From Dudresnaya verticillata (taxonomy: Eukaryota), in contig OZ374563.1 in assembly GCA_977862235.1 (NCBI GenBank), positions 1-64,000 of the forward strand: a stretch of DNA of 64,000 nt. Direction: 5' to 3'. The notes below the pieces were generated by a model. The model saw only the letters and a list, made by a program, of their open reading frames with translations. It had not been told where the DNA came from and did no database searches. Every line of letters begins with the position of its first letter. Position 1 is the stretch's first letter. Both the position numbers and the translations under genes were made by a program. Positions 2,651-52,149 of the stretch are shown here, piece by piece.

Positions 2651-3196
2651 CGTAACGCGATCCATAAGCCTCTGAGAGCATTCCATACTGTACATACGGT
2701 TTCCATTACCCCGGTAAAGTCCCACGTCTCTTCATCTTACAACGTAAACCCCTCAAATAGCCAACGCGCAGTTCCTTGCCGCCATTCCACGTGATCCTCT
2801 CCTTGACGACACCACCGTTCCAACGAAGTCTCATTATCGCAAGTGGCGGACTCGCAACACTCACGCAAACGTTCCGCCTAGCGAAGGAAGTACCGAGCAC
2901 TACAACACGGTCAACCTAAACCACTTCCGAAAAAAAACCGTCCGCGTATCCAGAACCCCGCAAGCCTTTACAAACCTTGCAAGACTGTTTGCTAGGCTAG
3001 GCGTCTGTCAGACCCCATGAGGGTTCCCCTCAAGCGGCAACCAAGGCCCAGTCTAGCCCCATTTCAGCCAGCCAATCACATCGCAGAACATTTACAGTGG
3101 TTTGGGGGTGCTTACAGGCAACCCCGACTGATATGCGGCCAAGTAAAAAATCGTGCACAAAATCCCCCCCACCAAATCCCCCAAGGAGGGGTAATT

Positions 3197-3268
3197 AAAC
3201 CCCTAAACCCCTAAAACCCCTAAACCCCTAAACCTAAAACCCCTAAAACCCCCTAAACCCCTAAACCC
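3197..3268. repeat. Interstitial telomeric tract (~9 units), same orientation as the terminal array
   Basis: aaacccctaaacccctaaaacccctaaacccctaaacctaaaacccctaaaaccccctaaacccctaaaccc. Confidence 0.92.
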
Positions 3269-4210
3269 GTAATTACATACAGTCAATGTGAATGCCAACA
3301 CTGTTAATTCCTCCATGCGCTAAACCCATGGGTTGTTATATTTGGTCACATTTAATCCTTTCATACGGTAAACCCATTCGTAACTACATACGGTCACTGT
3401 TAAACCCTTCATGCGCTAAACCCAGTGGTAATTATATATGCTGACTGTTAAACCCATACTCCATTAAGTACAACTCTTGCTAGATTTCATCTCAGCTACT
3501 CCCATAACCCGTTAAACCAAGTACCTACGCATCTATCTACCTTACTCCCCAGCTTCCACTTAAACCGTAGCTCCCTTACGTACAAACAATCCTTGCTCCC
3601 AAACTACCTAATCCGTTACTATATAATATAGAAGTATAACCCCGATTTGGAGGAGGAGTTCGAATCTGACTTCCACTTGGAGGCTATTCATTGCTTGCTG
3701 GGGACACGTGTCGATTTGTCGTGAGGACACGTGTCGTGTCCGTATCAGCAAACAAGTGACCTGCTGCCTTCCACTTGGCACCATTATGTCGGGCACTGGG
3801 GACAGGCTGTTTTTCGCAACCCTAGATTCGTAACCCTACGCAAACTCTCGCCGCCGCCGTCGTCGGGCGGTACCCTGCAATGGGGACAGGCTGTTGTTCC
3901 GTAACACTCTCACCGCCGCCGTCGTAGCTCAACCTAAACGCGCTCGGACTATCATCGTGTCCCTACTTACTACTCGCGTGCACCCTCCCTGTCCGCTCCC
4001 AGCCCCCTCCCACGCTACTGCAATCCTTCTCGTACTCCCTCTTACCTTACCAAGTACCCCCTTACCCTCCTCACCATCATCGTCCCCATCCCTTTGCCTC
4101 CTTCTCCCCTCTCGTGAATTTCAAACACACCGCGTGGACACGTTACACACGTGTCCACGCCCTGCGCGGTGTGTGACAAGGAGCTCAATCGGTTCAGATA
4201 CCTGCCACCC

Positions 4211-5785
4211 TGTGTGAAGTTTCTGACAATTGTCAACTCTTTCACACATCTCAGCTCCACGTTCAATTTGTGTGAAGTTTCTGCAAGTTTACACATCTTT
4301 CACACATCTCCGCAACTCTTGACCTGCCTGAAGTTTCTGAAAGTCTTCAAGTCTCTTCTAACGTGGACGTGTCTCTCGACATAATGTGAAGTTGTTGACA
4401 ATTTGAAGAAGTTTCAGATTGCGCACACCACTAGGATGCTTGTTGCAATACTACAACTGTGAAAGAGTTGTCAACTCTTTCACAGTTGTGAAGATCTTTA
4501 GCTCTGTTACAGTTTTCAACGCGCTGCTCATCGTGAGGTTTGCGTCTGTCTCTCGACTTTCGTTCGCGGGCCTTCTTCGCCGCCCTGCTGCCTCCGCCCT
4601 ACCATCAGTACGCTTTGTTGTCCGTGTGGCTGCCGCCCGCCTATCTTTGCTGCTCCACTTGGGAAGCCTACACCGCCATCGGATCGGCGACAACCACCGC
4701 CCCACCCGTCGTCACGCGTAGAAGACAAGCCACCGCCGGGCTGTATGTATGGATAGCCGTCGTCGGGGTCGTCCCGCCGCCGCGCGCACGACACGTTCTG
4801 CTCCTACACTACCGTCCGCGGACCGTGGAACTCGCAGATTCTCTACCTCTGAAGCCGTCGCTCACACGACACCGGTCCCGTCCAGCCGTACGGGAAGAAA
4901 GCGTTTCTGCTGGCCATACCGCTCGGCTTTAGCCATACCGCTGGGTGGGACTGGTGTTGTGTGCTGCCCAGGTACCGGGGCACGGGGGTCGGGTACTTCG
5001 ATCCGCCGTTGCGCGCATTCTTAGGAGATCACCGAGATCACCGAGATCACCGCGCACTTGGCACGCACTTCTTGGCTATTTCTATTTTGGAATATCTGTA
5101 TTTGTAATCCCCGCCTTTTAACTTTATTCGGAACGGTCTCGTGCGCTATCTGGCAGTATATCGACACTCCGCTACCACGTTACCGTCGTCTCCCATCGTG
5201 GCGTCGGGCACACCCACCGCCACGTCGCCGCATCAACCTTCGCGTGCCCTCGTCGGTACCACTCCTGCCAGTACCCTCGGCTGCCTGGCGACGTCGCCTT
5301 CCGCGCAAGCTACGCAGGACAACGCCTCCAACTCAGCGCTGTTGTCGAGAAGCCATCCCCGCCGCTCCTTTTGGCACGCGCTCCCGGCAGCCGACTCGAT
5401 TCGGGCGCTTCGTCGCTGTGGGCCGACAGCCGCGCGCTTCAGGGCACCGGACTGCACATGCTGCGCACATTACCCCCACCACCGAACCGCTGTATACATC
5501 ATCCTCTTTGCGCCCGGTGCACCACTGTGCCGTCGCGTTCTTCCCGCTCTTCGCACTATTGCCGTCTTTTCGCAGTACTTCCGATCCCGAGTTGGGGTTT
5601 CTCTTCGAATTGTATTTTGCTTGTTATTGCACTCCCCTTCCGGATCCAGATGCTCTTCGTTTCGGTGTTGTGAAAGAAATGACAATTTGCAGAATCTTCA
5701 CAGGGCAAGGCATCGTTCTGGGACGTCTGCTTCAAACTGCTTTCGGAGCTGTGAAGTTCTTGACAATTTACAACTTCTTCACAAT
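4211..5785. repeat. Dispersed ~36-bp palindromic motif family TGTGAA(A)G..TGACAA....ACT.TTCACA
   Basis: Copies at ~4211, ~4269, ~4385, 4453-4489 (perfect 18-bp arms, 1-nt loop), ~5669 and ~5749. Confidence 0.7.
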
Positions 5786-6120: not shown

Positions 6121-6433
6121 TGGAAAACCGCCTTATCCATCGGGATCCCATCTGGAAGACTGTTTATCCATCGGGACCCCGACCCGGAAGACTGTTTATG
6201 CATCGGGATCCCCATCTGGAAGACTGTTTATGCATCGGGATCGCCATCCGGAAGACTGTTTACTGATCGGGATCCCAATCTGGAAGACTGTTCAGAATGT
6301 GAAAGACTGGCAATGAATCCGGATTCCCAATCTGGAACACTGTTGATAATCCAAAAACAGTCTTCCACGGGAACCTTAATTTTAGTTAAAAAAGGGCACC
6401 TATAAACAGTCTTCCATGAAGGAATAGATATAG
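6121..6433. mobile_element. Putative DNA-transposon end: five 32-bp tandem units with GGAAGACTG motif plus a 79-bp terminal module
   Basis: Units start at 6121, 6153, 6185, 6217, 6249; the motif reappears inverted (AAACAGTCTTCCA) twice in 6355-6433, ending GAAGGAATAGATATAG. Confidence 0.55.
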
Positions 6434-6436
6434 AGG

Positions 6437-6664
6437 GCTGGAGGACTGTTCAGGCCTGGAGGACTGATCAGACAGCTTTCTGCAGGACTGTTCAGAATCT
6501 GGATCCCAATCGGGATTGGCTGGAGGACTTTTCAGGATTTGTGTACAATCCCGATTCCTCGTCTGGAGGACTTGTCTCAATCGCTAAACAGTCCTCCACG
6601 CCAACCTAAATTTCAATTAAAAAAGGGCAGGTCTGAACAGTCCTCCACGAAGGAATAGATATAG
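6437..6664. mobile_element. Second related transposon-like end with GGAGGACTG motif variant
   Basis: 6586-6664 is colinear with 6355-6433 and ends in the same GAAGGAATAGATATAG; several TGGAGGACT copies lie upstream. Confidence 0.55.
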
Positions 6665-6805
6665 CATTAAATTAATGTCCTGAACTTTATAGAATTTAAT
6701 ATAAACGTTACTATCAAGCTCACGGACGTTCTGACCGGACACGTGTCCTGAAACTTAGCACACGTGTCCACCCCACCATGGCGTACACGTGGACCAGCTT
6801 GGCAG

Positions 6806-7560
6806 CATTAATTTAATGCCCTCAACCTTATAGAATACAATTTAATCGTTCCTAACGTTGCAAACCAGCTCACGCCCTTACGACTCCTTGATCCAATCAA
6901 ACTAGCAAGGGATCCAATCCACAGAGTCCCGAGAACAACTAGATCTAATCGTACTGCACACTGACTCCCGCTGATCGAATCCATCCACCCGTACTCAATC
7001 CCAACCTGATGCAATCTACTGTACATTAACCCCCTCTCCTTCGACAACCCCAAGTCCCAGACAACCTAAACACTTCCACCCTCTGTAGTCCTAAACACTG
7101 AGCACTGAACCATAGAAAAGAAGCTAGAGCATTGTCCATAAACCCCTAAACCTGCAGCCCCCAGCCCGCCCTTCTGTACTTGTCAGAACCCTGTCAAGCA
7201 TCCCGCTGCACGTTTTGCCCCGTAACTTCGCGAAAATTTGCGTTGTTTGCATTCTGAGACCGCCCATCGACGCGTCTGACAAAGACGCTTCCATAGAGCT
7301 CCTGATCGTAGCTCTACCCCTATTGGTTCCAAAGTTATGCCCGCGACTCTCCAGGCCACCCTTACACAGCACGCAGCACCAGACTTTATCCCCTCAAGGC
7401 TTTCCCTGCTCCTCCATCCATCATTCCGTTACTAGATCTATTCCTGTACTATGTATCCCACGCCCTAAATCCAATTCGTCCACCACATTGATCCATTCCT
7501 TCTACCACCATGATGCATTGCATGCACTAACTCTACACCATTTACACCACTAATGTCATA
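6806..7560 (+). repeat. Subtelomeric direct repeat copy A (short third copy at ~6665-6740)
   Basis: Colinear blocks shared with 13328-14073: ATTAA.TTAATG..C..AACCTTATAGAAT, AACCTGATGCAATC, GTTCCAAAGTTATG, CCCTAAATCCAATTC.TCCACCACA.TGAT..ATTCC. Confidence 0.85.
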
Positions 7561-7961
7561 CCCCTCGCGTACGAAGCCATCCAAACTAACCCTGCACCTA
7601 ACCCTAAACCACTTACCAGCACTGTCAGCCTCTATCCCATCACACTCCCCAATCCTCACGTTTTTATTACCAGTAGAAGCGCAAGCCGATTCGCCTCGCG
7701 CACGCACGACCCTAAACCCTAAAACCCTAAAGATCCCTACGAAACTGGAGATGTGGTCTACGCTTTTTCACTGCTCCTTTCGTCAAGCTACGTCTTGGTA
7801 ACTTGACAAAAGGAAGCACAATCGGCCTCGTCAAGCTACGTCTTGGTTGCAACTATGTGTGGGGGAACATATGCGCAACCCAGCCCAACCCTATTTGCAC
7901 ACTTGCAATTGATGGCGCTTTTCGGTGCTGTTACTGCCGTCAATGTCTTTTTCGATGGTAG

Positions 7962-10592
7962 CTACGCCTTAGAAAACATCGACAATGACCCTGGCCTCGA
8001 TTGCAAGTTTGCAACCGAGGCCGGACAGTCATTCGTGGCCGCCAGGAACAACTTCATACTGCGGTCGTCGACCACGCCCTCGCTACCAATGGCCGAGACG
8101 CACTTTCCATAGTGCTGCTCAGCAATTTTCCTGCTGTGCCAACCTTGCAGCTCCAACGTGTGACCTACGTTGGACTCTTCCTCCTCATAACATTCTACAC
8201 CTCTCTTCAGTGCAAATACTACTTCCCGATTTGTCTGTGACTTGTCAATACTGTAACCGCCAAACCATTGCCGAAGCTTCTCCCCGTTATATCCTTGTGG
8301 AAGCCCATACCGATTCCACTGGCTTGCCATGACCTTTAGAGCGTCATTCCTCATCGGGACATTGAGAAGAAGGTAATCGTAACTGTCCTTCTTGACGCTC
8401 CTGCCGAGGTATTTCAGGAGTGCTACTCGCAACTCTACCCCAAGAATAATCACGGCCTTGTACAAGTTACTGGACACCGCATCGGGATGCTTGCTCGTGA
8501 ACTTCATCATACCTTCCTTCTGCGACCTGGTCTTGCTGTGACTCTGTATGCAAGTCAATCTGGCCCCACCGTGAAGTTGGAACCCCCTCGGGCCACTCCC
8601 ATTGTTCCTGGTTGCCATGAATCCCACCTCCGACCCGCGAGCAAAATTTCCCCCAGACAGATGGATGCATGCACAAACTAGCTCCACAGACTCCTGTACA
8701 AGGGATAGCATACTCACAGCTCTCTTGTGCGCCTCTCGAGCTGGAAGAGTTCCGAGTTGACCCATCGCGCGTCTCACACACGCACGGCAGTCCATCACAA
8801 TATCTCGATTTCCCTCGTCTTCGAAAAAACTGTACGGTGACTTGGTCTCCTTCGGATTCTCGATGACCACGGAGAGTCTCTCCTGAAAGTCTTCTGGAAG
8901 ATCAACCCCGTTCATGAAGCCCTCGTTCGTTGTTATGAGCTCCAGTATCCTCCGTTGCATACGTCTCACACACCTTCCAATGCGCTTCGCGCTCATATGG
9001 ATCCCAAGCACAAACCCACAGTGTTCCTCCTTGTGCCTCGGATCATCACACACCGTCCATGTACACCGTGAACTCTCCGAGCTTCTATGCTTGCGAGTTT
9101 TTGCCGCCAGTTCCTGCAACACATGGATACCGAGGTTGCCTCCAGACCTGTGATCTTTCCGAAATCTCTCAACCTCCTCGTCGGAATCCCCAGAAGATGG
9201 CCAGTGCACGATGGAGAGAATCGCGCAGCAGCCCGCAAGGTATGCCACTGCAGAAAGTGTGGGGGAAACTTCTACACCTCGCGACAGAGCGACTCCTCTC
9301 TCTGTCAGTCGCACTCCCAAGCAACCACAAATAACACTTGCTGCTGTTATACTCCCGGATTGTACGCTACTCTTCTCGGACAGAATGGCTTCTAGCAACC
9401 GATGTACAGCCCGCATGTGATCCCATTTGGTGCCCGGCCTCGATTGCAAACTTTCAATCGAGGCCGTGCGCGGTCGTTCAGTGCGCGATGCTTCAACCTT
9501 CTGGACAACTTCCTTTGCGGCGTCTAAAATCTCTTGGGAGGTGATTAGTGTCGTCTCCTGACACAAACGGAGAGTCATTACCAGTACCTCGGACATCTCC
9601 GTCCTGTACCTTTGTTCACTTTCATCACGGACCCATCGGAACTCCTTCTTCCTATCGAAATCCATGCCAGGGGGGGCCCGCACGGCGAGAAGTATCCTGG
9701 TCGATCCCATGTTTGGCCTTGTGCCTGCAGCACGAGCAGTTCTGCAAATCTTCATCAGGATGTCATTGAACCACTTGAGAACTTTCGTCTCGGGTATGCG
9801 GAAGACTGAGCGGCTCTTGTGTGCCTTGGCACTCATTTCCGCAGCCTTCTGAATGCTGATCCCAAGCTCTTTCAGTTTCAAATCCGCCCGTGTGTCAAAT
9901 GCAAAGTTTCCCATGGCACTCAACCGCGGCTCCTGCGAAAGAACGGAGACTTTTCTCTCCTCATCAACATCTTCAAGGCAGTGGATGATTCCTTGGGCAA
10001 TACTGTTGGCCACGTCGGATGTAGATCTACTCCCTTCATCACCGTCTTCTCGCACCAGGAAGTATTGTCCACCTTTTTTGAATAGTTTCTGAGCCTTTTC
10101 CGGTCGTACTTCTTTTCGAAGATCGGACAAGGTAACGTTCTCCATCGCTTGCACGTGCTTCCCGCGGTAATGCTGGTACAGACCCCGTATCGTAGGGCTG
10201 CTATGGTGGCATACGCGACACGGGTACACCTCAACCACAGGGAGAAATGACAGTGGCCGTACGCTTCCTCTGCATTCATCATTTTTCACGGTGGAAAAGT
10301 AATGCTCACGTTCCGTCTCGGTGCAGCTCGGTACAACGGAGGCCTTCACCTTCTGCAGGGAAGTGAACAGACCTCGAATTTTCTTCCCTTCGGCAGGCTT
10401 TTCGCATCTCTGAATATGATTGCGAAAGTTTTTTAATTGCTCTTTCCCAAGGTATCTCCCAGACCTGCACCTGCGCCAAAATGGATGTGAGATCTCAGGT
10501 ATGATAACAACCCCACTTTCCGACAGTCCTTCTTCCGCCTTTTTAAGTTCAGAAACGGACTCAGCTTCCGATGCAGTCATCTGGAAGGGCAA
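7962..10592 (-). CDS. DUF3505-like C2H2 zinc-finger / tyrosine-recombinase-like protein, related to the N-terminal region of fungal telomere-linked RecQ helicases, with no helicase domain in this ORF
   Basis: Open 876-aa frame. C2H2 finger CRVC-x12-H-x4-H followed by AQKLF..GGQYFLV. Recombinase-like motifs HLSGGNFARGSE (R652), HSKT (K687), KLRQW (R774), QGWH (H819)...HY (Y828). The first ATG (10580) follows ttctttgcccttccag, so an upstream exon is possible. Confidence 0.75.
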   Translation of the reverse strand: MPFQMTASEAESVSELKKAEEGLSESGVVIIPEISHPFWRRCRSGRYLGKEQLKNFRNHIQRCEKPAEGKKIRGLFTSLQKVKASVVPSCTETEREHYFSTVKNDECRGSVRPLSFLPVVEVYPCRVCHHSSPTIRGLYQHYRGKHVQAMENVTLSDLRKEVRPEKAQKLFKKGGQYFLVREDGDEGSRSTSDVANSIAQGIIHCLEDVDEERKVSVLSQEPRLSAMGNFAFDTRADLKLKELGISIQKAAEMSAKAHKSRSVFRIPETKVLKWFNDILMKICRTARAAGTRPNMGSTRILLAVRAPPGMDFDRKKEFRWVRDESEQRYRTEMSEVLVMTLRLCQETTLITSQEILDAAKEVVQKVEASRTERPRTASIESLQSRPGTKWDHMRAVHRLLEAILSEKSSVQSGSITAASVICGCLGVRLTERGVALSRGVEVSPTLSAVAYLAGCCAILSIVHWPSSGDSDEEVERFRKDHRSGGNLGIHVLQELAAKTRKHRSSESSRCTWTVCDDPRHKEEHCGFVLGIHMSAKRIGRCVRRMQRRILELITTNEGFMNGVDLPEDFQERLSVVIENPKETKSPYSFFEDEGNRDIVMDCRACVRRAMGQLGTLPAREAHKRAVSMLSLVQESVELVCACIHLSGGNFARGSEVGFMATRNNGSGPRGFQLHGGARLTCIQSHSKTRSQKEGMMKFTSKHPDAVSSNLYKAVIILGVELRVALLKYLGRSVKKDSYDYLLLNVPMRNDALKVMASQWNRYGLPQGYNGEKLRQWFGGYSIDKSQTNREVVFALKRGVECYEEEESNVGHTLELQGWHSRKIAEQHYGKCVSAIGSEGVVDDRSMKLFLAATNDCPASVANLQSRPGSLSMFSKA

Positions 10593-12065
10593 AGAATTGG
10601 GGATGCAATGTTCGTACTCGGTTTCCGTGTACTTCTGCCAGTCGGCCTCGATTGCAAGCTTGCAATCGAAGCCGGGTCCTCGGATTCGGAACTACTTTGC
10701 CGCTCAAGTCCAAAAGCCTCCTTTCTTGTGCCCGTCGGCCTCGGTTCCAAATTTGCAATCGAAGCCGGTTGCCTCACAAGTTCACAAAGAATATCCGCTT
10801 CTCCTTAGAGTTCAAAACGGGCTCTTTTGCAAGCTAACAACTGTGTTCGTCCCCAAGGAATGGCCAGGGCTCTGTTGTAAGCTTGCAATTGTGCCCGGTT
10901 TTCAAACTCTCGTGGAGATAAGGTCGATAATTTCCAGTACCGACGCAGACAATTACAATTACAAGTCGACTCGGGCAATTGGACGATGCAGTGGATCCGA
11001 CGGTGCGCTTGCCGGAATAGTTCTGCGTTGCTCGCGTCACGTCGGACGCGCAGAAAGGAAGGGAAGAAGGCTTGGTGCGGGGCAGAACGCCAAGGAAAGA
11101 GGTTAGTGGTCGCAAATCAAAATGTTAGGCACGTCGAGGGTCGAAAAAGAAGCGATAGTTGAGCGGCTTAGGGTCAGGGGGGTGATTGTCTGGATCGTGG
11201 GGAGGCCATGGGCCTCACAACTGTCTGTCACACTTATGCGCAACTGCCGTCGATATTTTGGCGGGAAACCGAAACACGGCCAGCTTGCTCTCCTGTATGT
11301 GAGATCCCTGTCTGGCGGGAACCTTGCGCAACCTCGCTCTCCTGACAAGTGTTTCAATTACGGTGCCGAATAGCAGTTTGCGACCAATGCCTGGTGATGC
11401 TTCACACCTATCATATCAATGCGTTTCGGTACGTTTGGAAACTGCCGCCAGACTCACGCCATCAGACTTAAACCCCACACTCCAGTCGGTGGTCGTCCCC
11501 TCCCCCTCCCCCTCTCTCCAGAGACACCGACCCTAGCCCACAGTTCAACACCTCCCCGCAGCTTCACCGACAGAGTCAACCGGAGCTGCCCTGCTTCACT
11601 GCCCCATCCGATTAACGTCGCCGTCGGGCGCAGCCGTGCGCACTATCCTAATCCACAGCGATTCAATTCGGATATGATCTACTTCTGTTTGGATCCCATT
11701 CGGATCCAATTAAAGAAGCAGATCATATCCGTCCTAGGTTGCGAACTTGCAATCGAGGCCGGACGGGAAAATCCGAGGCATGATGTACGTATTATCCCCC
11801 TCATTTCGCGATCTCTTCGTCGCGACTTACATTTCCCGCTCAATAGAGTTCGCAACGGACCTGTGCCGGCCCATTCACACCCTCCGGCCACGATTGCAAG
11901 CTTGCAACCTAGGCTGCAAAGCCCATTGGGCTGTGTGGAGCATGCTTTCCATCCGCCCTGTATTGTAAACTTTCAATCGAGGCCGAGAGGGCTGGAGTGC
12001 GTTCGAGTGCGCTGTGTGGAGCATTCTTTCTATCCGGCCTGCATTGAAAACTTTCAATTGAGGCC
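7993..12065. repeat. Nine copies of a 30-bp palindrome, consensus GGCCTCGATTGCAAGCTTGCAATCGAGGCC
   Basis: Copies at 7993, 9436, 10644, 10737, 10867 (degenerate), 11731, 11886, 11955 and 12036. Confidence 0.9.
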
Positions 12066-12115
12066 GGGAGGGTTGAAACGGGCTATACGGAGCATTCCTC
12101 CGCACGTCCACGTCC

Positions 12116-12181
12116 AGTGATCGGGAGAATACGTAGACATTAGTCCACGTATTCTCCCGCTCACTACGCGATCTTTGCTAG
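12116..12181 (+). other. 23-bp-stem hairpin followed 12 nt later by CTAG|T (Helitron 3'-end-like)
   Basis: 12116-12138 pairs with 12143-12165 (2 mismatches, loop ATTA); CTAG at 12178-12181, then T. Confidence 0.45.
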
Positions 12182-12201: not shown

Positions 12202-12660
12202 TGTTGTCGCTGGTGTTTCGATACCCGGACAATGGATGCCTTACTGACTCGTTGTATGCCCACTCCTGGTTTCCTGCAAACCTGCGGGTGGTATAGTTAG
12301 AATTCACCACACTTTTTTCCTTCCCTGGAGCTGTTGCACGTTGCATGTCTACAAGTATGGAACTGAATGTGCTGAATGCTTCGTATGGTTGTCGGTCCAG
12401 CAGTGCATGCGGGCCGGTGCCACGCGCCCCGTTGTCGCTGGTGTTTCGATACCCAGACAATGGGTGCCTTACTGACTCGTTGTATAGCCACCTGGCTGAC
12501 TGCACACCTACGGGTGGTAGAGTTAGCATTCACCACACTTGTTTCCTTCCTTGGACTTGTTGCGTATTACATGTCTACAAGTACGGAACTGAATGTGCTG
12601 AATGCTTCGTACGGTTGTTGGTCTAACGGTACATGCGGGACGGTGCCACGCGCCCCGTTG
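12202..12660. repeat. Tandem duplication, two ~229-bp units
   Basis: GTTGTCGCTGGTGTTTCGATACCC.GACAATGG.TGCCTTACTGACTCG at ~12202 and ~12431; the units are colinear to GGTGCCACGCGCCCCGTTG. Confidence 0.9.
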
Positions 12661-13327
12661 CTTTGTGTGCGCCCAACCCAATGACACACTCCCCACAGAG
12701 TTTGTTTCCGGTAGGCTTACAGGTTTACTTGCAAGCGCGCGCGCTTTTCCCGGTCTCGATTTTGTATTTCGTATTTTGAACCGCATGGATGCAGCATGCG
12801 CGCGCACACAAATCGATATCAGCACTGCGTGCTCGACACGCGCACTGCGCCTGCTGTGTTGGTTGGCCAAAAGCAGCACGGCACCGTGTGCGCTCCGTAC
12901 CTCACAGTTTGTATTCGCCGTTAAGCATGAAGTCGGCCCTCACGGGGTCAGGAAGGCCGTTGTCAAGCATGGAGTCGAAACGAATTGGCCAATGCTAGCC
13001 TATAGCGATATCCCCTCACAGTAGTTCGTATTGTGCGACTCGCTCCTTAACGGAATGTTGATTTGTCATTAATCTGGGCGTTTCGTCTCCATGCTTAACC
13101 CCGGATTACATATAGGAAGCCGCCATTTGGTCCAGGGATGTCGAATCAGGCTCCAAATCAATTTTAGAGGCCTCCTTCATCTAGAAATCGCGTATCTTTT
13201 GAATTCTTCGCAGGTACACCAACCAGGGCGGTCCTACACAAGTATCAGGCGCTGTAAGGTCGCTGCTATACCCCTGCCGCTGTAAATTTGCACAGCTCCT
13301 CATGAGAGCATGCTGAAGACGTGGGTC

Positions 13328-14073
13328 TATTAAATTAATGACCTGGAACCTTATAGAATTTAATATAAACACAGTATTTAATATGTAAACAGTGAACCAG
13401 CTCACGGACGTTCTCGCTCCTTCCTTCAATCAAACCAGTGCTGAATCTAATCCCCAGAGCCTCTAGATACAGTCTTATGTCGTATATTCTTCCCTTGATC
13501 TAGTCGACAAACCGGTATTGGATCCGAACCTGATGCAATCCATGACTTTTACTACTGTACTGTACTATACTTTATCATCCCTCCCTTTCCTTTTCCCCGT
13601 CCTTACTCCTTTCATTCCCACCCCCTACATCCCTAAACGCGTTAAAATGATACGTCCCTAACACCCCTAAACCCACCCATAAGCATACATGCCCCAAACC
13701 CCTATATAACCCGCTCAAAAGCTGCCGACGGCCCGTGGGGACGTTTTGCACCATAGAAACGCGCCAAAAATTTGATTTAGGAAGTTAAGGGCTTCCCGCA
13801 ACGCGTAGCAACGATACGCTTCGATTGAGCTACTGAACATCGACCTACCCCCAGCCGTTCCAAAGTTATGAGCACAACCGTCCAAGCCACCCTCACCCCA
13901 GCCTACAAACTTGATCCGATTGTGGTGATCCTTGATCTAATCTTCTGGGTACTCAATCTAATCCAATTCTATGTCCCTAAATCCAATTCATCCACCACAC
14001 TGATTCATTCCATGCACCACCATGGTTCATTCCATGCACCAACACTAGACCCTTTACCCCATCAATATCATAC
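13328..14073 (+). repeat. Subtelomeric direct repeat copy B, ending where a solo LTR begins
   Basis: Diverged colinear match to 6806-7560. Confidence 0.85.
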
Positions 14074-14079
14074 GGGGCG

Positions 14080-14888
14080 TGTAGTATAGCTGTGAGCACA
14101 CCATCAACAGCGGCTGTAAGCTATGCTGACAGCTCTGCACTGCAATGGTGCGCACAATGACGTCCACTGGGGAATCGTAATTGGGCAGTGAACCCGCTGG
14201 TTTTTTCGCTACTTTTTAGCGGCGGTCGACCGCCTTGCTGTCGGCAGCGGCCGCGCGCCGTGCCACACACGGCGCGCCTCAGTGACACTCGTCGCCATCG
14301 AGCCGTTGAGGGCGGCTTCCCGTTACGCCCTGCGCGCGCCCACAGGTAGCCGTTACCCGGACATGTCGACACGTGTATGGACGCGCGCTCACGAACCTCC
14401 CGCGTTCGTGCTGTTGGAGCGTACCCACCATAGAGTAGCCGTAGGCGCATACTAGTGTACAGTGTGTAAGGCCGTCTGCCATCGACGGCTCAGTAAACCG
14501 GTCAAGCAACAGCTCGCGCTGAAGCTTGCCCCCAGCCTTTCGGGTTCGATCCCTTTCCTCTACACCAGCGGGCGATTCTCATTTTCCCTCGCCTCGCTAG
14601 GCTTTCCTTCTTTCTTTTTCTTTTCCGTCGGCTTAGTGCCGCCCTTCGGCAGGGACGATGGGATCCGACAGCTGCCTACCCCGATATGGTACGTCGCGTG
14701 CACGCTCCGGCATCGACGCCGTTGATCCGCACCGCCGCGGCACACGCGGCCGACACCGCTCTACCACTAGCTACCCATCCACGGGTCTGCGTGACGGCTT
14801 CGGACCAGCGAGTATCAGACGTCGGGTCGGGCCGAGGTCTATAATACATCAGGGAATTTACTCGGACCGACCCGACGTCTATAATACA
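14080..14888 (+). mobile_element. Solo LTR of a Gypsy family related to the 44106-45046 LTR; 3' end duplicated
   Basis: TGTAGTATAG...CTATAATACA terminal inverted repeat; colinear with 22469-23237 and 44430-45046; CTATAATACATCAGGGAATTTACT occurs at 14839 and 14879; no clear TSD. Confidence 0.8.
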
Positions 14889-16937: not shown

Positions 16938-18446
16938 ATGTTACGACATGCAGCTGATGCCGGAACAAATTTCGCGCTTGTGAGAGGAGTTTTATCTTCC
17001 CGAAGGTCGTTGAAGATCACTATGGAGAAGCAAGTACGGAAACGGGCATCTTTGAAAGTGGCCTTTTGCACTGCAACCGTGCTCACAGTAATGACAGCCT
17101 ACGTTTGTTGGTCTCAAGTGCAAGCAAAACTGGCGAGGAGAAAGTCTTACACTTTCTCCATTGATTCCGAGCATCGAAATATTATCAGATTTCCAACGAG
17201 AGTTCCTCGAATCGCCATTGCCGAACTAGTTGAACATCTGGGCCTTCGAATTGGAGCAGAAGTAGGTGTTCAGAGAGGATACTTCGCTGCTGAAACATTA
17301 CAGATATGGAATTCTTGTCAGAAATATGTCCTTGTAGACTTATGGGCCCACCAAGAAAATTACTTGGACAAAGCCAACAAAAACCAAACCATTCAAGAGG
17401 AAATTATGAAGGACGCAATGAAAAACGTAGATCACTGGGAAGGAAAGATTGAGACATGCAGAAATTTCTCAGAGGTATGTGCTCATCAATACCCTGACAA
17501 CTACTTTGACTACGTTTACATTGATGCACGGCATGACTTCAAAGGAGTGTATGCTGATTTGCAGGCCTGGTACCCAAAAATTAAAAGCGATGGTATTATG
17601 GCTGGGCATGATTACATGAGTGCCGTCGAAGTCGCCAGACAAGATTGGACGGTTCAATTTGACGGCACATTTGACTATGGGAGACAGGCAGTAAGAGGGG
17701 CAGTCAATCTATTCGTCGCAGAGAACGAACAATATGTTACATTTCCAGACTGGCCAAAGAAATATCGGTCCTGGGTCATTCGAAAGACAGCCGGTCAACG
17801 AAAGTCGAATAATATCTTACACTTTATTAATCTCTCATGTTTTGAGTATGAAGAAAGAGAAGATTGTAGGCTAGTTCCGAAGGATTATGCTAAAATGGTC
17901 ATGCACTGGGAAAGGAAGAATTTGGATTCAATTTCTATTCTATGGACTCCTGCTCTGGTTCGGAGGTTCTTCCCACATTTATCAGTCCTGTTCTACACGG
18001 CTTACAACAGAAATGTTTATAATTTCGAAGAGGTGATCAAGCTAGAGGTGTTGTACAAATTTGGCGGGATATTTATAAGCGCCGAGAACATTCCTATAAT
18101 TGGGATCCGTCAATATATAGAATCACTGAGTACAGGGAAAGTGGTTGCGGCTTGCCGTCAGAAATCCTCTGGAAAGGAATTCAGGTCTACTGGAAATCGC
18201 TGTCAAAAGCTATCTCCTTTGCTCTTGGGGTCTGAAAAAGGAAATGAGGCCCTGAAAATACTATCACGAACACATAGAAGCATTTTCTCGCTGGGATTTC
18301 GAAGTTTGAACGCGTATTCTGGACTTCTGCCAGAGCTCATCAAAAATGTTAGCCATATTGTAGTAGACCCCGATGTAACTCTTCCATGTACAATAGAAGA
18401 GTACTCTGAAAATTGCGTAGCATTGGACGGATTCTCTTTAACGTGA
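16938..18446 (+). CDS. Type II membrane protein: class I SAM methyltransferase (Methyltransf_24-like) fused to a GT32/DXD-family glycosyltransferase-like domain; alternative start 17022
   Basis: Basic tail plus hydrophobic anchor VAFCTATVLTVMTAYVCW; methyltransferase motifs AEVGVQRG, LVDLW, FDYVYIDARH, GIMAGHDY; then NILHFI...ILWT...IKLEVLYKFGGIFIS. Intact and intronless. Confidence 0.85.
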   Translation: MLRHAADAGTNFALVRGVLSSRRSLKITMEKQVRKRASLKVAFCTATVLTVMTAYVCWSQVQAKLARRKSYTFSIDSEHRNIIRFPTRVPRIAIAELVEHLGLRIGAEVGVQRGYFAAETLQIWNSCQKYVLVDLWAHQENYLDKANKNQTIQEEIMKDAMKNVDHWEGKIETCRNFSEVCAHQYPDNYFDYVYIDARHDFKGVYADLQAWYPKIKSDGIMAGHDYMSAVEVARQDWTVQFDGTFDYGRQAVRGAVNLFVAENEQYVTFPDWPKKYRSWVIRKTAGQRKSNNILHFINLSCFEYEEREDCRLVPKDYAKMVMHWERKNLDSISILWTPALVRRFFPHLSVLFYTAYNRNVYNFEEVIKLEVLYKFGGIFISAENIPIIGIRQYIESLSTGKVVAACRQKSSGKEFRSTGNRCQKLSPLLLGSEKGNEALKILSRTHRSIFSLGFRSLNAYSGLLPELIKNVSHIVVDPDVTLPCTIEEYSENCVALDGFSLT

Positions 18447-19186: not shown

Positions 19187-20400
19187 AGGTTGTAGGCAAC
19201 TAAACGTTACTAGGCTACATTGTTGCTTTTCTTCTTCTCTGCTACACTGTAACACCGGTCGTCAGTACCACGACGACAGAACCCCAGGACACTGTGGATA
19301 CCAGCCGTTACCACATTGAGCGTCTAAACTCTACAAATTGCTACTGCTGGTGTCACGAAATCGAATTGGTCCTTCGCGACAAGGGCATCTGAGATATTGA
19401 AAATGGTACTGAAAATGTACCAGAGAACCCTACCGAGCAAGCCAAGTATCTCCGCCGTAGTGACTCAGCCTTGAGTACCATCCTTCTCACCATTGATGAC
19501 TCCTGTAATGCTGGTTTCATTGATCTCCGTGACCCAACCGAAGTCTGGAACCAGCTGCAAAAGACATATCAAGTTATCTCTGAAGCGTCCGTTGATACCT
19601 ATCTCGAACAATACCAAGCATTGAAAATGAAGCCTACTGAGAAAGTAACCCAGTACATCAACTGCCTTCGGGAACTTGAAAGCAAGTTGTCCGGCGTTGG
19701 CCATATTGTTTCTAGCAAGAAGAAACGAGCACTCCTTCGCGGATTGACGGAAGATTTCAAGGTTCCGGTACAGGTCATACGCGCTATGAAACATGAACGT
19801 GAAGTTGCAATTGGAATGCTCTTCAACCATGAGATGTCGCTGCTTCCTCACCATGAGAGGAACTCTACCGCACTATCCGCACACTACCAGAAGAAATGTA
19901 CGCACTGCGGCCGCAAGGGACATTCCAAATCTGAATGCTACCACAATCCAAAAAGTTCTAAATATCGGCCAGAGATGCGGCATCGTGGAAACGGCAGCTA
20001 CCAGCTACCATAATAGGCGAAACCGTCGCAGTCATTCCTATCGCGCTTGTTACAAACACCAAGACATGGATGACCTACCTAACTCCACGGGGTCTACCTA
20101 TATCACGTTCATCTCGATGTGCCTCACATCATGCTCTGGCTCAAGTATAAAATCCTCAAGGAGAAGTGGTTTATAGATTCGGGTGCCACGTCAAACATTT
20201 GTAACAAAAAACGTTTTTCAAACATCTGAACACTGAAAAATGATACCTCCGTATCTGTGGGAGACGGAAATAAGGCTAGAGTACATGATGTCGGAACTGT
20301 ACATGGTTTTGTGCAGTTTGATGGATTAAACCAATCTGTCCGCATGCAGAACATCTTATTCATTCCAGATCTGATCAAGTTACTCACGTTGACCTCAGAA
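19187..20400 (+). mobile_element. Decayed Ty1/Copia gag-protease fragment
   Basis: gag-like VWNQLQKTY and YINCLRELESKL; zinc knuckle CTHCGRKGHSKSEC; protease WFIDSGATSNIC and VSVGDG...NILFIPDL; contains stops. Confidence 0.85.
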
Positions 20401-22468
20401 ATGATCATGTGGTCCAGCACGTCATCTCAAAAGCGCGATTGACAGACGCAGACGCCCAAATGTCAACACCAATGAACTGTGCAGTGCAGTTGAGCGAATT
20501 CGGATCCCTCCACGAGCTTGAAGAGGCCTTGCCCAGAGAGCATGCGCGATTTTGACGAAGAGAGATGATGTATTTGCACCGGGACGAACCCTCTTTTGAC
20601 ATAGATTCGCGGATTCTCTCCGTCTCAACAGCCTGCTCTTTGTCGTTATAACCAATGTAAGATCTCATATACACCTGATTAATGTCGCCACTGTGACAGG
20701 AGCGACGAAAGAAAGCCAACAGTATCTCCCTCCTGCCCGGCAGTTTGAAAGAGCAAAGTAACAATCGTTTCTATGTTTGCTTGTTCTATGTCTAAGAGAC
20801 TGCAATAGGCAGGGTCTACTGCTTCCGCAGCCCCCCAGTTTCTCACGATACGAAAGGAGCATAGTGTGGGCAAGGGTTGGCCCCTGATGCATAAACCACC
20901 TCAAATGGAGAATTCCGATTCTTTGACAAAAAGGTTTCCGCCATGCGATTGCGGGTGATGCAGGCAGTGGTCCTCGAACTACCTTCAAAGAGATGCATTG
21001 AATGGATCTCAGGAAGCTTGTCCGGTGGAGTAGAAACCATTTATATCATGGCAAGCACGACTTTCCGCTGACGCGTGGGTTACATGCCTCATTCCCTATG
21101 TCGCATCTGGCAGGAAGGAAATGTTCCTAGCGGCTGCGGATGTGACGGAGTAGTGCAGAACTGTACCGCGAAGCGAGGAATACCTCTACCGTTGCGGACA
21201 AGAAGAGAATGTATCTATCTGTTGTTCATGCGATATAAGGATTGGGCTGCAGCATCAATGCGGTCTTCCACGACAATGATTCAGTCTATGCTTCTAACTG
21301 CGATCTGGACGCCGACATCATGGAACGCCCTTGTTCCTTCATTCACCGCTCCTGCCAGGGAAGATTGTTACAATGCTCTTTCCGTTGACTAGGGCCTAGT
21401 AACTGAATTATACATTACCGGACAGGGTGTTTGCCTTCTCCAGTGACTTTTCAAGCGCGAGGTGAGGATGACAGATGCATAACGTGCTCCATATCGCAAG
21501 TAAGCGCCGGTTCGACTGCCAGCGATGGGGTCTTCCGCTGAGCAAGTTAAGGATACAGCGCAGTATGCATCCCGAAAAAGGGCAATGCTGCGGTGTGTGT
21601 GCAGTTACAATGCTGCTACTCCTCTTCAAGATTGTGAAGTGAGGTTGTCCGATGAGCCTTTCGGTTCAGCAAAGGCGCAACCGACATCGAGCAGCCGAAA
21701 TCGAATGCGCACGGGACTGCTCAGGGCGAGACGTACCACACGTGGAGCTGCGATACGCGGGGCGGTAACATGGGGCCGCGGCAGGTCGATTCGGCCGAGT
21801 TGGCGGGCGACATGGCGATCTGCAGGGGTTTTTCGGCTGGTGGGGCGGCCGCGGCGTGGTGGAGCTGCGAGAGTCGGTGCGCGGCCGACGAGACGCGCGC
21901 GGTGGCGGCGTGCGGGGAGTCTTGGAGGAGGGACGGGGGTGCGGTGTGCGATGGGAGAGGACAGGCAGAAGCGGGACCGGAGGGGGAGGAGGAGTGGGAG
22001 AATTGCGTGTGCCGCTTTGAAATATGCGCTATATCATACGATAGTATGATATCATGTATTTATATATCATATATTACTGTCTAATACTACAGTATGACAC
22101 AGACCGGGGTGCATTAGCACCCTGGATGCAGTACGGTAGTATTAATTTATTTGAGGCATCATGCGGTACAGTGAGCTGAAAATAATATGGACTTACAAAT
22201 GATGTGCCTCAGATGCCTGTAAGATATTTGTACCGACCAATCAAAGCAAAGGGAGGATCATCAGAGTATCCAATTGGTGTCCAATTTGTCCAGAATCACC
22301 CAACGGATATCCAACGAGCATTTATCACGCATCATACCCCCGAAACGGGCCAATCCCGTAACCCCAATGTTCATCCCCGAGTAGCCGACGGACATATAGC
22401 GGGTGTCCAAAAAATCCAACGGACATCCGCAGGATAGCTCCCGAACCTCCAAATTCTTCACTGGGCCG

Positions 22469-23237
22469 TGTACTGCAGCTGTCACCACACCATCAGCAGC
22501 GGCTGTAAGGTATGTTGACAGCTCCGCACTGTAATAGTGCGCACGATGAAGCCCGCTGGTGAGTCGTAACTGGGCAGCAAGCCCGCTAGTTTTTTGTTGA
22601 TTTTCGACGGCGGTCGACCGCCTTGCTCTCGGCGGCGGTCGCGCGCCGTTCTGCACACAGCGCGCCTCAATGACGCTATCCTGCATCGAGCCGTTGAGAG
22701 GGCCGCTGCCTGGTACCGTCTGCGCGCGCCCAAGGGTACCCGTTACCCGGGCGTGTCGAGAATTGTATGGCCGCGCGCACGCGCACCTCCCATCTTGGCG
22801 TCGCGGGGGCGCATTCGGAGTATGAGTAGACATAGCTGTAAATAGTGTAGTGTATTTAAGGCCGCCTTCCATCGACGGCTCAGTAAACCAGGGAAGCAAC
22901 AGCACACGCTGAAGCTTTCCAACGGCCTTTCGGGATCGATCCCTCTACTCTTCACCAGCGGGCGGTTCTCCTTTTTCCTTGCCTCGCTAGGCTTTCCTCC
23001 TCCCTTTTCTTTCCCGTCGGCTTCGTGCCGCCCTTCGAAAGTAACTCTGGGATCCGACAGCTGCCTACCCGCGTACATTACGCCCCGTAGGTGCTCCGAC
23101 ATCGACGCCGTTGATCCGCACCTGCGGGGCGCAAGCGACCTGCACCGCTCTACCACTAGCTACCCATCGACGGGTCTGTGTGACGGCTTCGGACCAGCGA
23201 GTATCAGACGTCGGATCGATCCGACGTCTCTACTACA
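22469..23237 (+). mobile_element. Solo LTR, same family as 14080-14888
   Basis: TG...CA ends; colinear over its full length with the 14080 copy. Confidence 0.8.
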
Positions 23238-44105: not shown

Positions 44106-45046
44106 TGTGGCATAGCTGTAAGACCAGCTGTGCCACGCACGCGCAGCTGTAAGAACAGCTGCGCCACGTGTGCACTGCTGTGCGCACGCTGTCAGCCGGT
44201 GGCGCCGAAGCCCTGCTGAACTGTAAGGAAGTGCGTAGTGGCGTGCGCAGCTGTAAGGCCAGCTGCGCCACGTGTGCACTGCTGTGCGCGCGCTGTCAGC
44301 CGGTGGCGCCGAAGCCCCGCTTAACTGTAAGGAAGTGCGCAGTGGCGCCCGCGTGCGCCCGCGTACACGTGGGACACTGAAACTCCCATGTAATTTCTAC
44401 GTTTATTGTTTTGTAGTGTACAGCACCGTCTAAGTGTAAGCGGCGGTCGAACGCCCTGCTGTCCTGCGCGCTGCACGCACGCACTCCGGCGCCGAGCCGT
44501 TGAGTGCGGGACACGTGCGCGCGCACTCCGGCGTCGAGCCTTTGAGTACATGTGGAGCGTTTCGCCCACGCGCGCCCCCGGGTTACCGTTACCCGTACCT
44601 GTCGACGCGTGTTGGGGCGCGCCGGCGCACCTCCCGGGTTGGTGCCGCCGCAGGCCCTGTAGTATATCTAGTAGTCGCCCCTCTGGGCTTCAGTAAACCA
44701 GGCAAGCCAGCCTACGCCAGGCTTGCCCTTTCTGCTTTGGGTTTCTTTCCCAGTCCTTCGCCCTACGGCTTCCCTCTTTCCCTGGCTGTCTAGGCTTTCC
44801 TTTTCCTTTCCCTACCGTCGGCTTCGTGCCGCCCCACGACGGGGACGCAGGGATCCGGCCGCTGCCGCCCGCGTACGGTACGCCCCGTGCGCGCTCAGGC
44901 TTCGACGCCGTTGATCCGCGACTGTCGACGGCGCGCGCGGCCGACACCACCGCTCTACCACCACAGCTACCACCCTTCGACGGGTCTGGGTGCGACTGAT
45001 CGACCAGCGCAGCTAGACGTCCGTTCGACCTGACGTCTATGCCACA
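44106..45046 (+). mobile_element. 5' LTR (941 bp) of the GC-rich Gypsy element, with an internal ~100-bp tandem duplication
   Basis: Perfect 10-bp terminal inverted repeat TGTGGCATAG...CTATGCCACA, followed by a PBS. Confidence 0.88.
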
Positions 45047-45060: not shown

Positions 45061-45114
45061 TAGAAGTCGCAGAAGACCCTATCACCTCTCGCGTCGACGC
45101 GATCGAGGCCAAGA

Positions 45115-51100: not shown

Positions 51101-52149
51101 CGCTTTACTAAGCTGACGCAAGTCGCGCCTCTGCTCACTATTACGGCTTACAACGTCGCAGTTGTCTGCTCTGAACAGTGGGTCTTCCACTACGGGCCCC
51201 TAGGTCCCTGCTTTCCGATAACGGAAAGCAATTCACATCGAAGTTCTTCCAAGCCGTCTGCCGGTATTTGGGTTTGAACAACGTGTTCACCTCCGCGTAT
51301 CACCCCGAGTAGAATGGGCAGGCTGAACGCTACAACCGGACCGTCATGGCCATGTTGAGGAACTATGTCAACGATCACCAAAACGATTGGGATCGATACG
51401 CCTCTGCGTTGACGTATTCCTACAACTGTCATGTGCACCGCTCGACGCGGACGACTCCCTTCAGCTTAGTGCTGTCACGGCCTCCGCCTGAATTTACTAA
51501 GTTTCACTCGGCGGTCGACCGCCCGAAGCCTAGTAAGGATGTCCGAACGGACTTCCTCAAGCGGTTAGACACCGCTATGGGCCTGGCTTCTGCCGCCCTG
51601 GCCAAAACGCAGCGGCGTTACAAAAAGGACTTTGACCGACGGGTCCGGAAGGTCAAATCTAGCATCAAGGCCGGGGATTATGGCTTTATCGACGCAACCG
51701 ACGGGGTGACGAAACCACCGAAGTGGCAGAGCCCGACCATCGGGCCTTATCGCGTGCTGCTCAACGACGAGCGCATGTTGTTTATCGACAGAGACGGCCT
51801 GGTCGAACGCATCGCAGCGGACCGAGTCGTCTTCTGTCCCCCGCCTCTGCGGGAAGACACCGCGCGTCGAAGCGCGTACTTGCCCACCGCCGCCGATCTC
51901 GCGTCCAAGGCCGTCGACGGCCCGCGGTTCGTGGTGGACAAGGTACTTGATCATGGCACGGCCGAAGACGGCACGCTGCTCTTCCAGGTCAAGTGGACCG
52001 GCTACTCTAAGCCGACTTGGGAACCTCGATCCCATTTGCCGGAGGAGATGGTGAGCCAATACTTCCGCACGCAGAAGCGTCGGCAGGGCTCTGGGCTCGA
52101 CGCCCCATCCCCTTCACTCACCCCCTCGGCGGGGGCGCCTCGTGCTTAA
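45115..52149 (+). mobile_element. Gypsy chromovirus gag-pol with several stops and frameshifts; no 3' LTR seen
   Basis: gag with CWFCRELGHIMYSC; protease VDTGSG; RT RFCVDYRRLN and YLDD; RNase H DTDAS; integrase GHPG...C..C; chromodomain FVVDKVLDH...VKWTGY...TWEP. Confidence 0.95.

Follow-up and report, generated by a model that had tools for sequence, protein, structure and literature searches.

The chromosome end covered by our window (the whole 64-kb stretch of DNA that was analysed) is an ordinary repeat telomere, and about 8 kb from it lies an intact gene, P0001, whose 3'-end faces the telomere. Two copies of a subtelomeric block enclose about 6.7 kb, and this unit contains the gene together with all nine members of a family of palindromes, which the initial annotation took as candidate cognate sites of a recombinase encoded by the gene. 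Rfam gave no match over the nine sites, and its only matches were sub-threshold miRNA ones at 16.2-16.3 kb. The features of the unit and its surroundings are the following:

7-1084, no strand: telomeric repeat array with an 8-bp unit (C4TA3), 133.6 copies
6663-7573, plus strand: subtelomeric block lying between the gene and the telomere, direct repeat of 13280-14085 (about 70% identical)
7962-10580, minus strand: intact 872-aa open reading frame (P0001) with a zinc finger and a tyrosine-recombinase-fold domain, like a telomere-linked helicase (TLH) gene without the helicase
8106-9785, minus strand: predicted tyrosine-recombinase module (aa ~266-825) with core-binding-like and catalytic domains and residues R648, K683, R770, H815 and Y824
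10155-10232, minus strand: C2H2 zinc finger (aa 117-142; E=1.7e-4, under the Pfam curated cut-off)
13280-14085, plus strand: second copy of the subtelomeric block

The gene and its predicted product

Regarding the product of the gene, the single-sequence fold was unusable (pLDDT 36), and we worked with a 644-residue structure model with a pLDDT of 85. Among the best ten of 48,161 chains in VIA-align, eight were tyrosine recombinases (Z 7.6-10.2) and two were topoisomerase IB relatives. XerA, XerH, IntI4, XerD and Cre are among the top matches, and that to XerH has Z 8.9 and an rmsd of 5.5 with 276 residues aligned over model residues 52-608. No protelomerase appeared among the 50 fold matches listed for the whole 644-residue model, and families beyond these 50 may match as well. 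Foldseek found no solved structure at E<=0.001, which counts against the palindromes being targets of this protein; against viral models it returned a single protein of a Feldmannia virus, uncharacterised (E=5e-4), besides weak matches to phage integrases.

Five catalytic-type residues, assigned by motif and spacing rather than by residue superposition, are conserved in the homologs that have a residue at the position: R648 (55/56), K683 (56/56), R770 (50/55), H815 (52/52) and Y824 (51/52). The recombinase gene of the initial annotation is supported, the model matching Xer/Cre folds and these five residues being intact, but the tyrosine was misplaced: residue 828 is an unconserved valine and the conserved tyrosine is Y824. 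The histidine of the H-x-x-R motif is missing, with E767 in its place and Ser as the commonest residue of the homologs (28/55), and this also counts against a cognate enzyme. Moreover, the recombinase region carries a helical insertion of around 100 residues. For the modelled product the evidence supports the fold of a tyrosine recombinase, including the five catalytic-type residues conserved in the homologs.

P0001 belongs to a family of zinc-finger/OrsD, recombinase and RecQ-helicase proteins with an architecture like that of TLH. Among the 30 homologs scanned, 10 have OrsD (PF12013) and 19 have DEAD/Helicase_C; the zinc-finger region of P0001 aligns with the OrsD regions of homologs, and RecQ proteins are the closest solved helicases to the helicase part of the relatives. 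P0001 itself ends 48 residues past Y824, and neither in it nor elsewhere in the 64-kb window did we find a helicase or, in six frames, a remnant of one. The likeness to TLH is one of architecture and location, in a comparison that covered unnamed homologs. The ESM Atlas feature matches (0.96-0.97) are to unnamed eukaryotic clusters, most commonly of Ascomycota or Basidiomycota.

Other searches gave little. A word-based protein search with aa 380-872 had no match, and the 19 proteins from a profile search were helicases or had no annotation, each aligned to at most 7% of the recombinase query. No relatives of the locus were found in viral contigs, metagenome contigs (query P0005), genome contigs or plasmids. 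DUF3435, DUF3504 and GCR1_C were listed neither for P0001 (E<=0.1) nor for the 30 homologs (E<=0.001), and no HUH family was present among the scanned open reading frames of the window.

The nine palindromes and their conservation

All nine palindromes of the initial annotation are present at the coordinates given there, and from first to last they differ from the 30-mer consensus at 2, 2, 1, 5, 7, 5, 4, 6 and 6 positions. They are given below at their 34-bp extent, none with a strand, together with two possible decayed copies:

7991-8024: site 1 (start 7993), in frame at aa 853-863, beginning one codon past the last position homologous to relatives
9434-9467: site 2 (start 9436), in frame at aa 372-382, within a loop of variable length that separates the core-binding-like part from the catalytic one
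10642-10675: site 3 (start 10644), ~64 bp upstream of the ATG
10735-10768: site 4 (start 10737), with a derived right arm common to sites 3 and 4
10865-10898: site 5 (start 10867), the most diverged (7 mismatches)
11729-11762: site 6 (start 11731), with a two-change arm common to site 7 in inverted orientation
11884-11917: site 7 (start 11886)
11953-11986: site 8 (start 11955), within the 81-bp direct unit that it shares with site 9
12034-12067: site 9 (start 12036), in an 81-bp direct unit with site 8
10817-10850: possible decayed tenth copy, whose 13.7 bits exceed the 95th percentile of shuffled maxima yet stay within their range
7885-7918: possible decayed eleventh copy just after the stop codon, whose 9.8 bits are not significant by themselves

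The nine copies are confined to about 4 kb, and the earlier impression that there is no full copy elsewhere holds, since nothing else in the 64 kb comes closer to the consensus than 10 mismatches. Three copies have at most three mismatches, against none in 100 shuffles. With a position weight matrix the nine sites score 35.5-51.6 bits (25.9-48.8 when each is left out), and the maximum of 200 shuffled windows was 18.4. The two next-best places, 10819 and 7887, are weak singly, and both lie in or beside the cluster. Among viral, metagenome and prokaryote-genome contigs, no exact match to the palindrome patterns was found. The last three copies had been placed in tandem units of about 70-80 bp; this is correct for 11955 and 12036, which share a direct 81-bp unit (87%), whereas 11886, 69 bp away, does not have the left flank of that unit.

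The length of 30 bp, which had been divided into 11+8+11 or 12+6+12, was too short, because symmetry extends to about 34 bp, or 13+8+13 with a presumed border between arm and spacer; nevertheless, the proposed recombinase-site geometry stands. The two added flanking positions are C in 16/18 and 13/18 half-sites. Tyrosine-recombinase sites have arms of 11-13 bp and a spacer of 6-8 bp, according to the part of the source available (PMC3212892). A site of 34 bp with 13-bp arms around 8 lies within this published range, and this counts for the palindromes as targets of the enzyme.

Conservation is concentrated at particular positions. Per cell in the nine sites, changes number 1/54 in TTG and 1/36 in AA, 30/180 further out, 6/18 at position -4 and 7/18 at position -1; heterogeneity across positions has p=0.003 with nine sites, and this weakens to p=0.11 when each tandem group is represented by a single site. 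Only 3 of the 39 altered positions carry mirrored changes, which indicates that the sequence is kept and not the base pairing, and compensatory cells were not above shuffles (109/500); on these two counts selection for hairpin pairing is not supported. The best-kept copies do form stable hairpins (z -4.9 to -6.8), and copy 11955 folds no better than shuffles (z -0.7). The central hexamer is asymmetric in five of the nine sites and symmetric in four, and all eight central bases are common only to 10644 and 11886. Geometry and position-specific conservation, as read from the letters, partly support the palindromes as candidate cognate sites.

Two further ideas were discarded or left weak. Whichever boundary was set outside the palindrome, no consistent target-site duplication emerged (1/9 sites per setting at most), and a fold-back origin of the site flanks was not accepted (inverted-flank permutation p=0.11, or 0.04 when three bases are skipped).

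What the palindromes may be for

Two copies had been noticed in frame within the coding sequence, and we confirmed both. The consensus has no stop codon in any of its three frames, therefore a site tolerated within coding sequence is less surprising. Both of these sites (7993 and 9436) have their two arms, unrelated flanks and no target duplication. Site 9436 lies in a loop that is gapped in 52-53 of 59 homologs. At the other, C852 stands in the alignment column of a Trp that 34/40 scorable homologs keep, and the site begins with the next codon, 853, which counts for a cognate site; homology of P0001 to its relatives ends within one codon of it. On the other side, exchange at a site centre does not by itself insert a whole site into coding sequence.

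Nearer to the telomere there is a second family:

4213-5783, no strand: five 34-bp dyads (starts 4213, 4271, 4385, 5669 and 5750) with the same inner TG-NN-AR core as the nine sites and different outer arms

This family keeps T-6, G-5, A-2 and a purine at -1 at equal distance from the centre (random hexamer p=0.003), again in favour of cognate sites. Its middle has a fixed length yet is unpaired (4/25 symmetric). A test of this family's core, chosen after the data were seen, gave 1/54 against 44/252; with position -1 included there was no clear difference (8/72 against 37/234). No recombinase gene or remnant was found beside this family, and a third one with an 11-bp middle (at 6333 and 6564) points to a dyad-rich subtelomere; both observations count against the same reading.

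Having examined the sites and the enzyme together at one locus, we consider it about equally probable to be right or wrong that the nine palindromes are double-stranded binding and cutting sites of the predicted recombinase encoded among them, which would be the helicase-less remnant of a TLH-like subtelomeric element. One subunit of the enzyme would occupy each 13-bp arm and cut near the centre, the cuts would leave an overlap of ~6 bp (AA-RY-TT), and recombination would take place between sites whose overlaps match. Three sites (9436, 11955 and 12036) have one orientation and 7993 has the opposite one, the three AAGCTT sites having no direction; inversion of a 1.4-kb catalytic segment and circles of 2.5-2.6 kb are therefore predicted. 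An exchange at the 7993 site could have swapped the helicase half for a 20-residue tail, and the site cluster 64-290 bp upstream of the start may serve as an operator for the gene as well.

The strongest competing explanation, which we find rather unlikely, is that the palindromes bind some other dimeric protein, such as a host or subtelomere chromatin factor or the product of another element, and that they are found near the gene just because the two are parts of one subtelomeric module, which tandem duplication and gene conversion have spread locally. Against this, a transcription-factor site would not usually be conserved over as much as 34 bp, the nine-site family is absent from the other 60 kb, and a protein of this kind gives no reason for a site so close to the point where the gene is truncated. 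The common core of the second family with no adjoining recombinase speaks for it, as do the several further dyad families within 14 kb of the telomere and the fact that several of the nine copies are local duplicates. In addition, the helicase-associated repeats of Magnaporthe are seen by their authors, in the part of the text available, as possible protein-binding or silencing elements (PMC1635262).

It is less probable still, and we would call it improbable, that a foreign enzyme, with its gene at another place, mobilises the complete 34-mer as a minimal REP- or MITE-like insert, which would persist in the gene only where its in-frame insertion did no harm. Whole sites with unrelated flanks, a copy in the mostly gapped loop, three stop-free frames and the stable hairpins of the best-kept copies would all fit such an insert, but it is opposed by the near absence of target-site duplications, by the missing pairing selection (with 11955 at shuffle level) and by the lack of dispersal within the window.

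A protelomerase-like resolvase that cuts the symmetric site and seals hairpin ends, for instance those of a linear extrachromosomal form of the element, is very improbable: the consensus is fully symmetric with four of nine central hexamers symmetric, the location is subtelomeric, and P0001 does not have the H-x-x-R histidine, which protelomerases and topoisomerase IB are likewise not known to have, but the telomere here is an ordinary repeat array and the centre is asymmetric in five of the nine sites. Long inverted flanks would be expected from replication of a hairpin end, and the flanks are not inverted copies (p=0.11, or 0.04 with three bases skipped). The hairpin-end resolution suggested in the initial annotation is thus not sustained, pairing not being conserved among the copies either.

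Going back to the recombinase and its own sites, a wider proposal is tentative and we rather doubt it: TLH-type elements might recombine themselves, a zinc-finger recombinase cutting lox-like 34-bp sites carried within and about its own gene and causing inversion, excision and truncation, with the lost helicase as a scar and with outer arms specific to each subfamily on a common TG-NN-AR core. If this were true, it would explain the spread and truncation of these units at chromosome ends, it would add a eukaryotic pair of the Cre/lox type, and TLH-type elements would be a natural source of orthogonal eukaryotic recombinase/site pairs. Should the middle domain of TLH be a recombinase, what is still lacking is the DNA that it acts on, and this locus offers a candidate 34-mer, the first testable one for a little-understood telomere-linked gene family. 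It also offers a proposed nucleophile (Y824), predicted junctions of inversions and circles, and another family of sites against which specificity could be compared.

Comparison with known systems

RAYT/REP clusters (REPtrons) have an enzyme gene amid short palindromes. The analogy with them drawn in the initial annotation is good for this layout, which, with the symmetric consensus, also recalls protelomerase/tel; it fails for the rest, because here the fold is that of a tyrosine recombinase instead of an HUH enzyme, pairing is neither conserved nor selected and there is no dispersal in the window. Unlike protelomerase/tel, the locus has no hairpin chromosome end.

Cryptons and Starships are, like the element proposed here, eukaryotic and built on a tyrosine recombinase. 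In the parts of the sources available, the only terminal repeats of Cryptons are direct ones of 4 or 6 bp, inverted repeats being absent (PMC3212892), and Starships are described with DUF3435 captains, a TIR and direct repeats that are short (PMC10104507). In contrast, our unit has long internal dyads, about 1.3 kb inside its apparent ends, and none of the domains DUF3435, DUF3504 and GCR1_C was listed.

TLH genes lie at chromosome ends in many fungi and their function is not established, according to the authors in the available parts of two papers (10.1101/2024.02.27.582403, PMC1635262). In what is available of the TLH papers the TLH domain is a conserved region and is not termed a recombinase. 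We found no tie of telomere-linked helicases to tyrosine recombinases in the literature, mostly open-access texts without the supplements where TLH domain figures may be, no work joining Starship tyrosine recombinases with telomere helicases, and no description of the P0001 family as a recombinase, including in the accessible portions of 10.1101/2025.11.13.688278 and PMC9940879. Our gene is like those of the available part of PMC1635262 in being subtelomeric with its 3'-end telomere-ward and in having palindrome-bearing repeats just upstream of the start, and P0001 has a candidate N-terminal zinc finger; it differs from TLH in having no C-terminal RecQ helicase. In Magnaporthe, the same partial text describes a conserved 23-bp imperfect palindrome in a repeat array ending 181 bp upstream of the TLH genes (PMC1635262), a precedent that counts for the cognate-site reading; here the palindrome is 34 bp long, even-centred and also found within coding sequence.

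Finally, the locus resembles Cre/loxP, Flp/FRT and Xer/dif in the fold, in the R-K-R-H-Y residues and in the 13+8+13 dyad. However, it has at least nine diverged sites in 4 kb and not two, with symmetric and asymmetric centres mixed, and its enzyme differs in the missing H-x-x-R histidine, in the helical insertion, in the zinc finger and in having relatives with a fused helicase.

Extent and setting of the palindrome cluster

The nine palindromes of the initial annotation were all confirmed at their positions, with 1-7 mismatches each against the 30-mer consensus, and its statement that the window holds no other full copy was also correct, the next best place having 10 mismatches. The symmetry runs 2 bases further on each side, giving 34 bp. 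With a symmetric PWM the nine sites scored 35.5-51.6 bits, and 25.9-48.8 bits in leave-one-out scoring; the highest score in 200 shuffled windows was 18.4 bits. Possible decayed copies are the next-best places, 10819 (13.7 bits) and 7887 (9.8 bits), each weak taken singly but situated within or next to the cluster. The last three sites had been assigned to tandem units; this applies to 11955 and 12036, which share a direct tandem unit, and not to 11886, which lies outside it. Nine points placed independently would all land in the cluster span with a probability of 2.6e-9. Because several copies are local duplicates, we recounted by hand with four independent places and obtained roughly 8e-4. 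The palindrome cluster is a real, unusual feature.

Main features around the cluster
7-1084: telomere in 8-bp units, with which the window opens
4213-5783: second palindrome family, five 34-bp dyads
6663-7573: block recurring as a direct repeat at 13280-14085, about 70% identical
7962-10580, minus strand: ORF of 872 aa, pointing at the telomere
7993 and 9436: two sites in frame within the ORF
10644, 10737 and 10867: three good copies; these and a decayed one occupy the stretch 64-290 bp upstream of the ATG
11731, 11886, 11955 and 12036: four further copies, 1.15-1.46 kb upstream of the ATG

The two block copies bracket a unit of ~6.7 kb that contains the gene and all nine sites. About 1.3 kb separates the sites from each end, so they are interior features of the unit and do not form its termini.

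Regarding the surroundings, a minus-strand ORF of 152 aa (1076-1534) has its stop codon provided by the telomeric repeat, as if a chromosome end had been healed within a gene; it had no Pfam match above cut-off and its Atlas matches were all sub-0.9. Interstitial telomere-like repeats occur between subtelomeric blocks (3196-3272, 7706-7731, 13631-13672). A 32-bp tandem array of five copies and two 35-bp dyads (6333, 6564) with 12-bp arms around 11 bp occupy 6133-6664, a stretch that ends exactly at the start of the 6663 block. The upstream site cluster has an imperfect, longer hairpin on either side (11669-11731, 12116-12165), 11764-11814 is similar to 12122-12174 (77%), and a 226-bp tandem duplication (12203-12660, 87%) separates the upstream sites from the repeated block. 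The second block is broken into by the first copy (14074-14848) of a 775-bp repeat with TG...CA ends, 80% identical to 22463-23237 and partially present at 44558-45046; these copies are probably LTRs. There is a Copia gag match at 19393-20010, and GC-rich Ty3/Gypsy-type pieces at about 45100-52150 match zinc knuckle, protease, reverse transcriptase, integrase zinc finger and chromodomain. A plus-strand ORF of 502 aa (16938-18446) with a Methyltransf_24 domain has AT-rich surroundings. Near-perfect palindromes of 52-60 bp (41870-41980, where two abut at 41921; 53360-53419; 55961-56013) are unrelated to the nine-site family.

The gene amid the sites

Residues 215-858 were modelled from 60 sequences (pLDDT 85). 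Foldseek of the model against solved structures gave nothing at E<=0.001; when 48,161 chains were compared with it by wide structural alignment, tyrosine recombinases ranked first, with topoisomerase IB among the top matches.

Structural alignment of the model with tyrosine recombinases
archaeal Xer: Z 10.2, rmsd 3.2, 169 aligned
XerH: Z 8.9, rmsd 5.5, 276 aligned
IntI4: Z 8.2, rmsd 5.1, 263 aligned
Cre: Z 7.6, rmsd 5.8, 267 aligned

Counting only homologs with a residue at the position, R648 is kept in 55/56, K683 in 56/56, R770 in 50/55, H815 in 52/52 and Y824 in 51/52. The tyrosine had been placed at Y828, where the residue is actually a valine; the conserved one is Y824. The H-x-x-R histidine is absent from the gene product, which has E767 there.

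Searched against 1.84 billion representatives, the C-terminal 492 residues have 83 relatives that pass E<=0.001, with identities of 21-45%. In a Pfam scan of 30 of them, 19 had DEAD and/or Helicase_C and 10 matched OrsD/PF12013, 4 of these above the curated cut-off. RecQ helicases were the best solved matches of the family profile. Telomere-linked helicases (TLH) have been described, in the passages available, as combining C2H2 fingers with a TLH domain and RecQ (10.1101/2024.02.27.582403). The domain architecture of the family agrees with this, all 30 relatives looked up being without names. The copy in the window lacks the helicase, with no remnant in six frames, and is for this reason a truncated TLH-like gene and not a full member. 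Our literature search found no paper linking telomere-linked helicase genes with a tyrosine recombinase.

Both in-frame copies noted initially were confirmed. The 9436 copy supplies aa 372-382, which fall in a loop; 52-53 of 59 homologs are gapped there, and in the nearest homologs the loop is longer and unrelated in sequence. The 7993 copy begins at codon 853. The helix after the catalytic H...Y motif could be scored in 40 of the 53 homologs bearing that motif, and 34 of these 40 have a Trp aligned with C852; therefore, homology stops within one codon of the site edge. Beyond this point a 20-residue tail replaces the rest of the protein.

What the copies conserve and how they may be read

From this one locus, the most likely reading, to which we give about even chances, is that the nine palindromes are cognate sites of the element's predicted recombinase. 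Counting outward from the centre over the 18 half-sites, TTG (-7 to -5) was changed in 1/54 cells and AA (-3, -2) in 1/36; positions further out were changed in 14/108 and 16/72, position -4 in 6/18, and position -1 in 7/18, purines only. Column heterogeneity gave p=0.003 with nine sites and p=0.11 with one site per tandem group.

The sites might belong to another protein inside the same subtelomeric module, which we consider rather unlikely, and the second family bears on this. Its five dyads scored 39.5-48.0 bits, where shuffled sequence reached at most 18.1; their outer arms differ from those of the nine sites, and the middle is variable and unpaired with a fixed length. Both families have T-6, G-5 and A-2, with a purine at -1, equidistant from the centre (random-hexamer p=0.003), and family-1 changes at this core were 1/54 vs 44/252 elsewhere, in a test picked after seeing the data that weakens when position -1 is added (8/72 vs 37/234). 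From sequence, this suggests that related proteins recognise both families as double-stranded DNA. Nevertheless, the shared core cuts both ways, because the second family has no recombinase gene or remnant alongside, nor was any gene identified beside it. It forms two clusters about 1.2 kb apart (4213-4493 and 5669-5783, with weak copies near 4325 and 4449-4493), a layout reminiscent of how the main family is grouped upstream, also in two clusters.

A minimal mobile insert is improbable. No target-site duplication was seen at the sites, whose flanks are mutually unrelated save for local duplicates, and flank symmetry within sites is weak (p=0.11 or 0.04). Finally, protelomerase-type resolution is very improbable: only 3/39 changed positions are mirrored in the opposite arm and compensatory pairs among the copies are not above shuffles; therefore sequence, not hairpin pairing, has been kept.

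For cognate recombinase sites, each 13-bp arm would be bound by one subunit and the cut would fall close to the centre with an overlap of ~6 bp, in which case -4 would be a tolerant base, like the outer spacer positions of loxP. Four sites have the central hexamer AAACTT in one direction or the other, one has GAACTT, three have AAGCTT and one has AAATTT; AAGCTT and AAATTT would be the products expected of central exchange between opposed AAACTT sites, and recurrent G/A change would fit too. The opposed 7993 and 9436 sites are predicted to invert the catalytic segment, 9436 with 11955/12036 may yield circles, and the helicase could have been lost by exchange at the 7993 site. A difficulty for this reading is that exchange at the centre would not bring a complete site into the ORF, and the ORF contains two complete ones.

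Comparison with known systems

The integrases of Mx8 and SSV1 have the attachment site inside their own gene, and the likeness, a recombination site within the enzyme's gene, would hold if the exchange at 7993 is read correctly. The element ends of Crypton and Starship, as far as the passages available describe them, differ in build from this unit. In Magnaporthe, according to the part of the source available, the array that stops 181 bp upstream of TLH genes contains a repeat carrying a conserved, imperfect palindrome of 23 bp (PMC1635262). This is a positional precedent for the upstream sites, although the palindrome length differs and it is not tied to recombination there; the passages available of the Botrytis TLH paper (10.1101/2022.03.07.483234) contain no palindromes. 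Tyrosine-recombinase sites are described, in the portion consulted, as arms of 11-13 around 6-8 (PMC3212892). With Cre/loxP and Xer/dif the predicted fold and the site geometry suggest a likeness, and the pairing of enzyme and site, resting on one locus, is plausible and directly testable.
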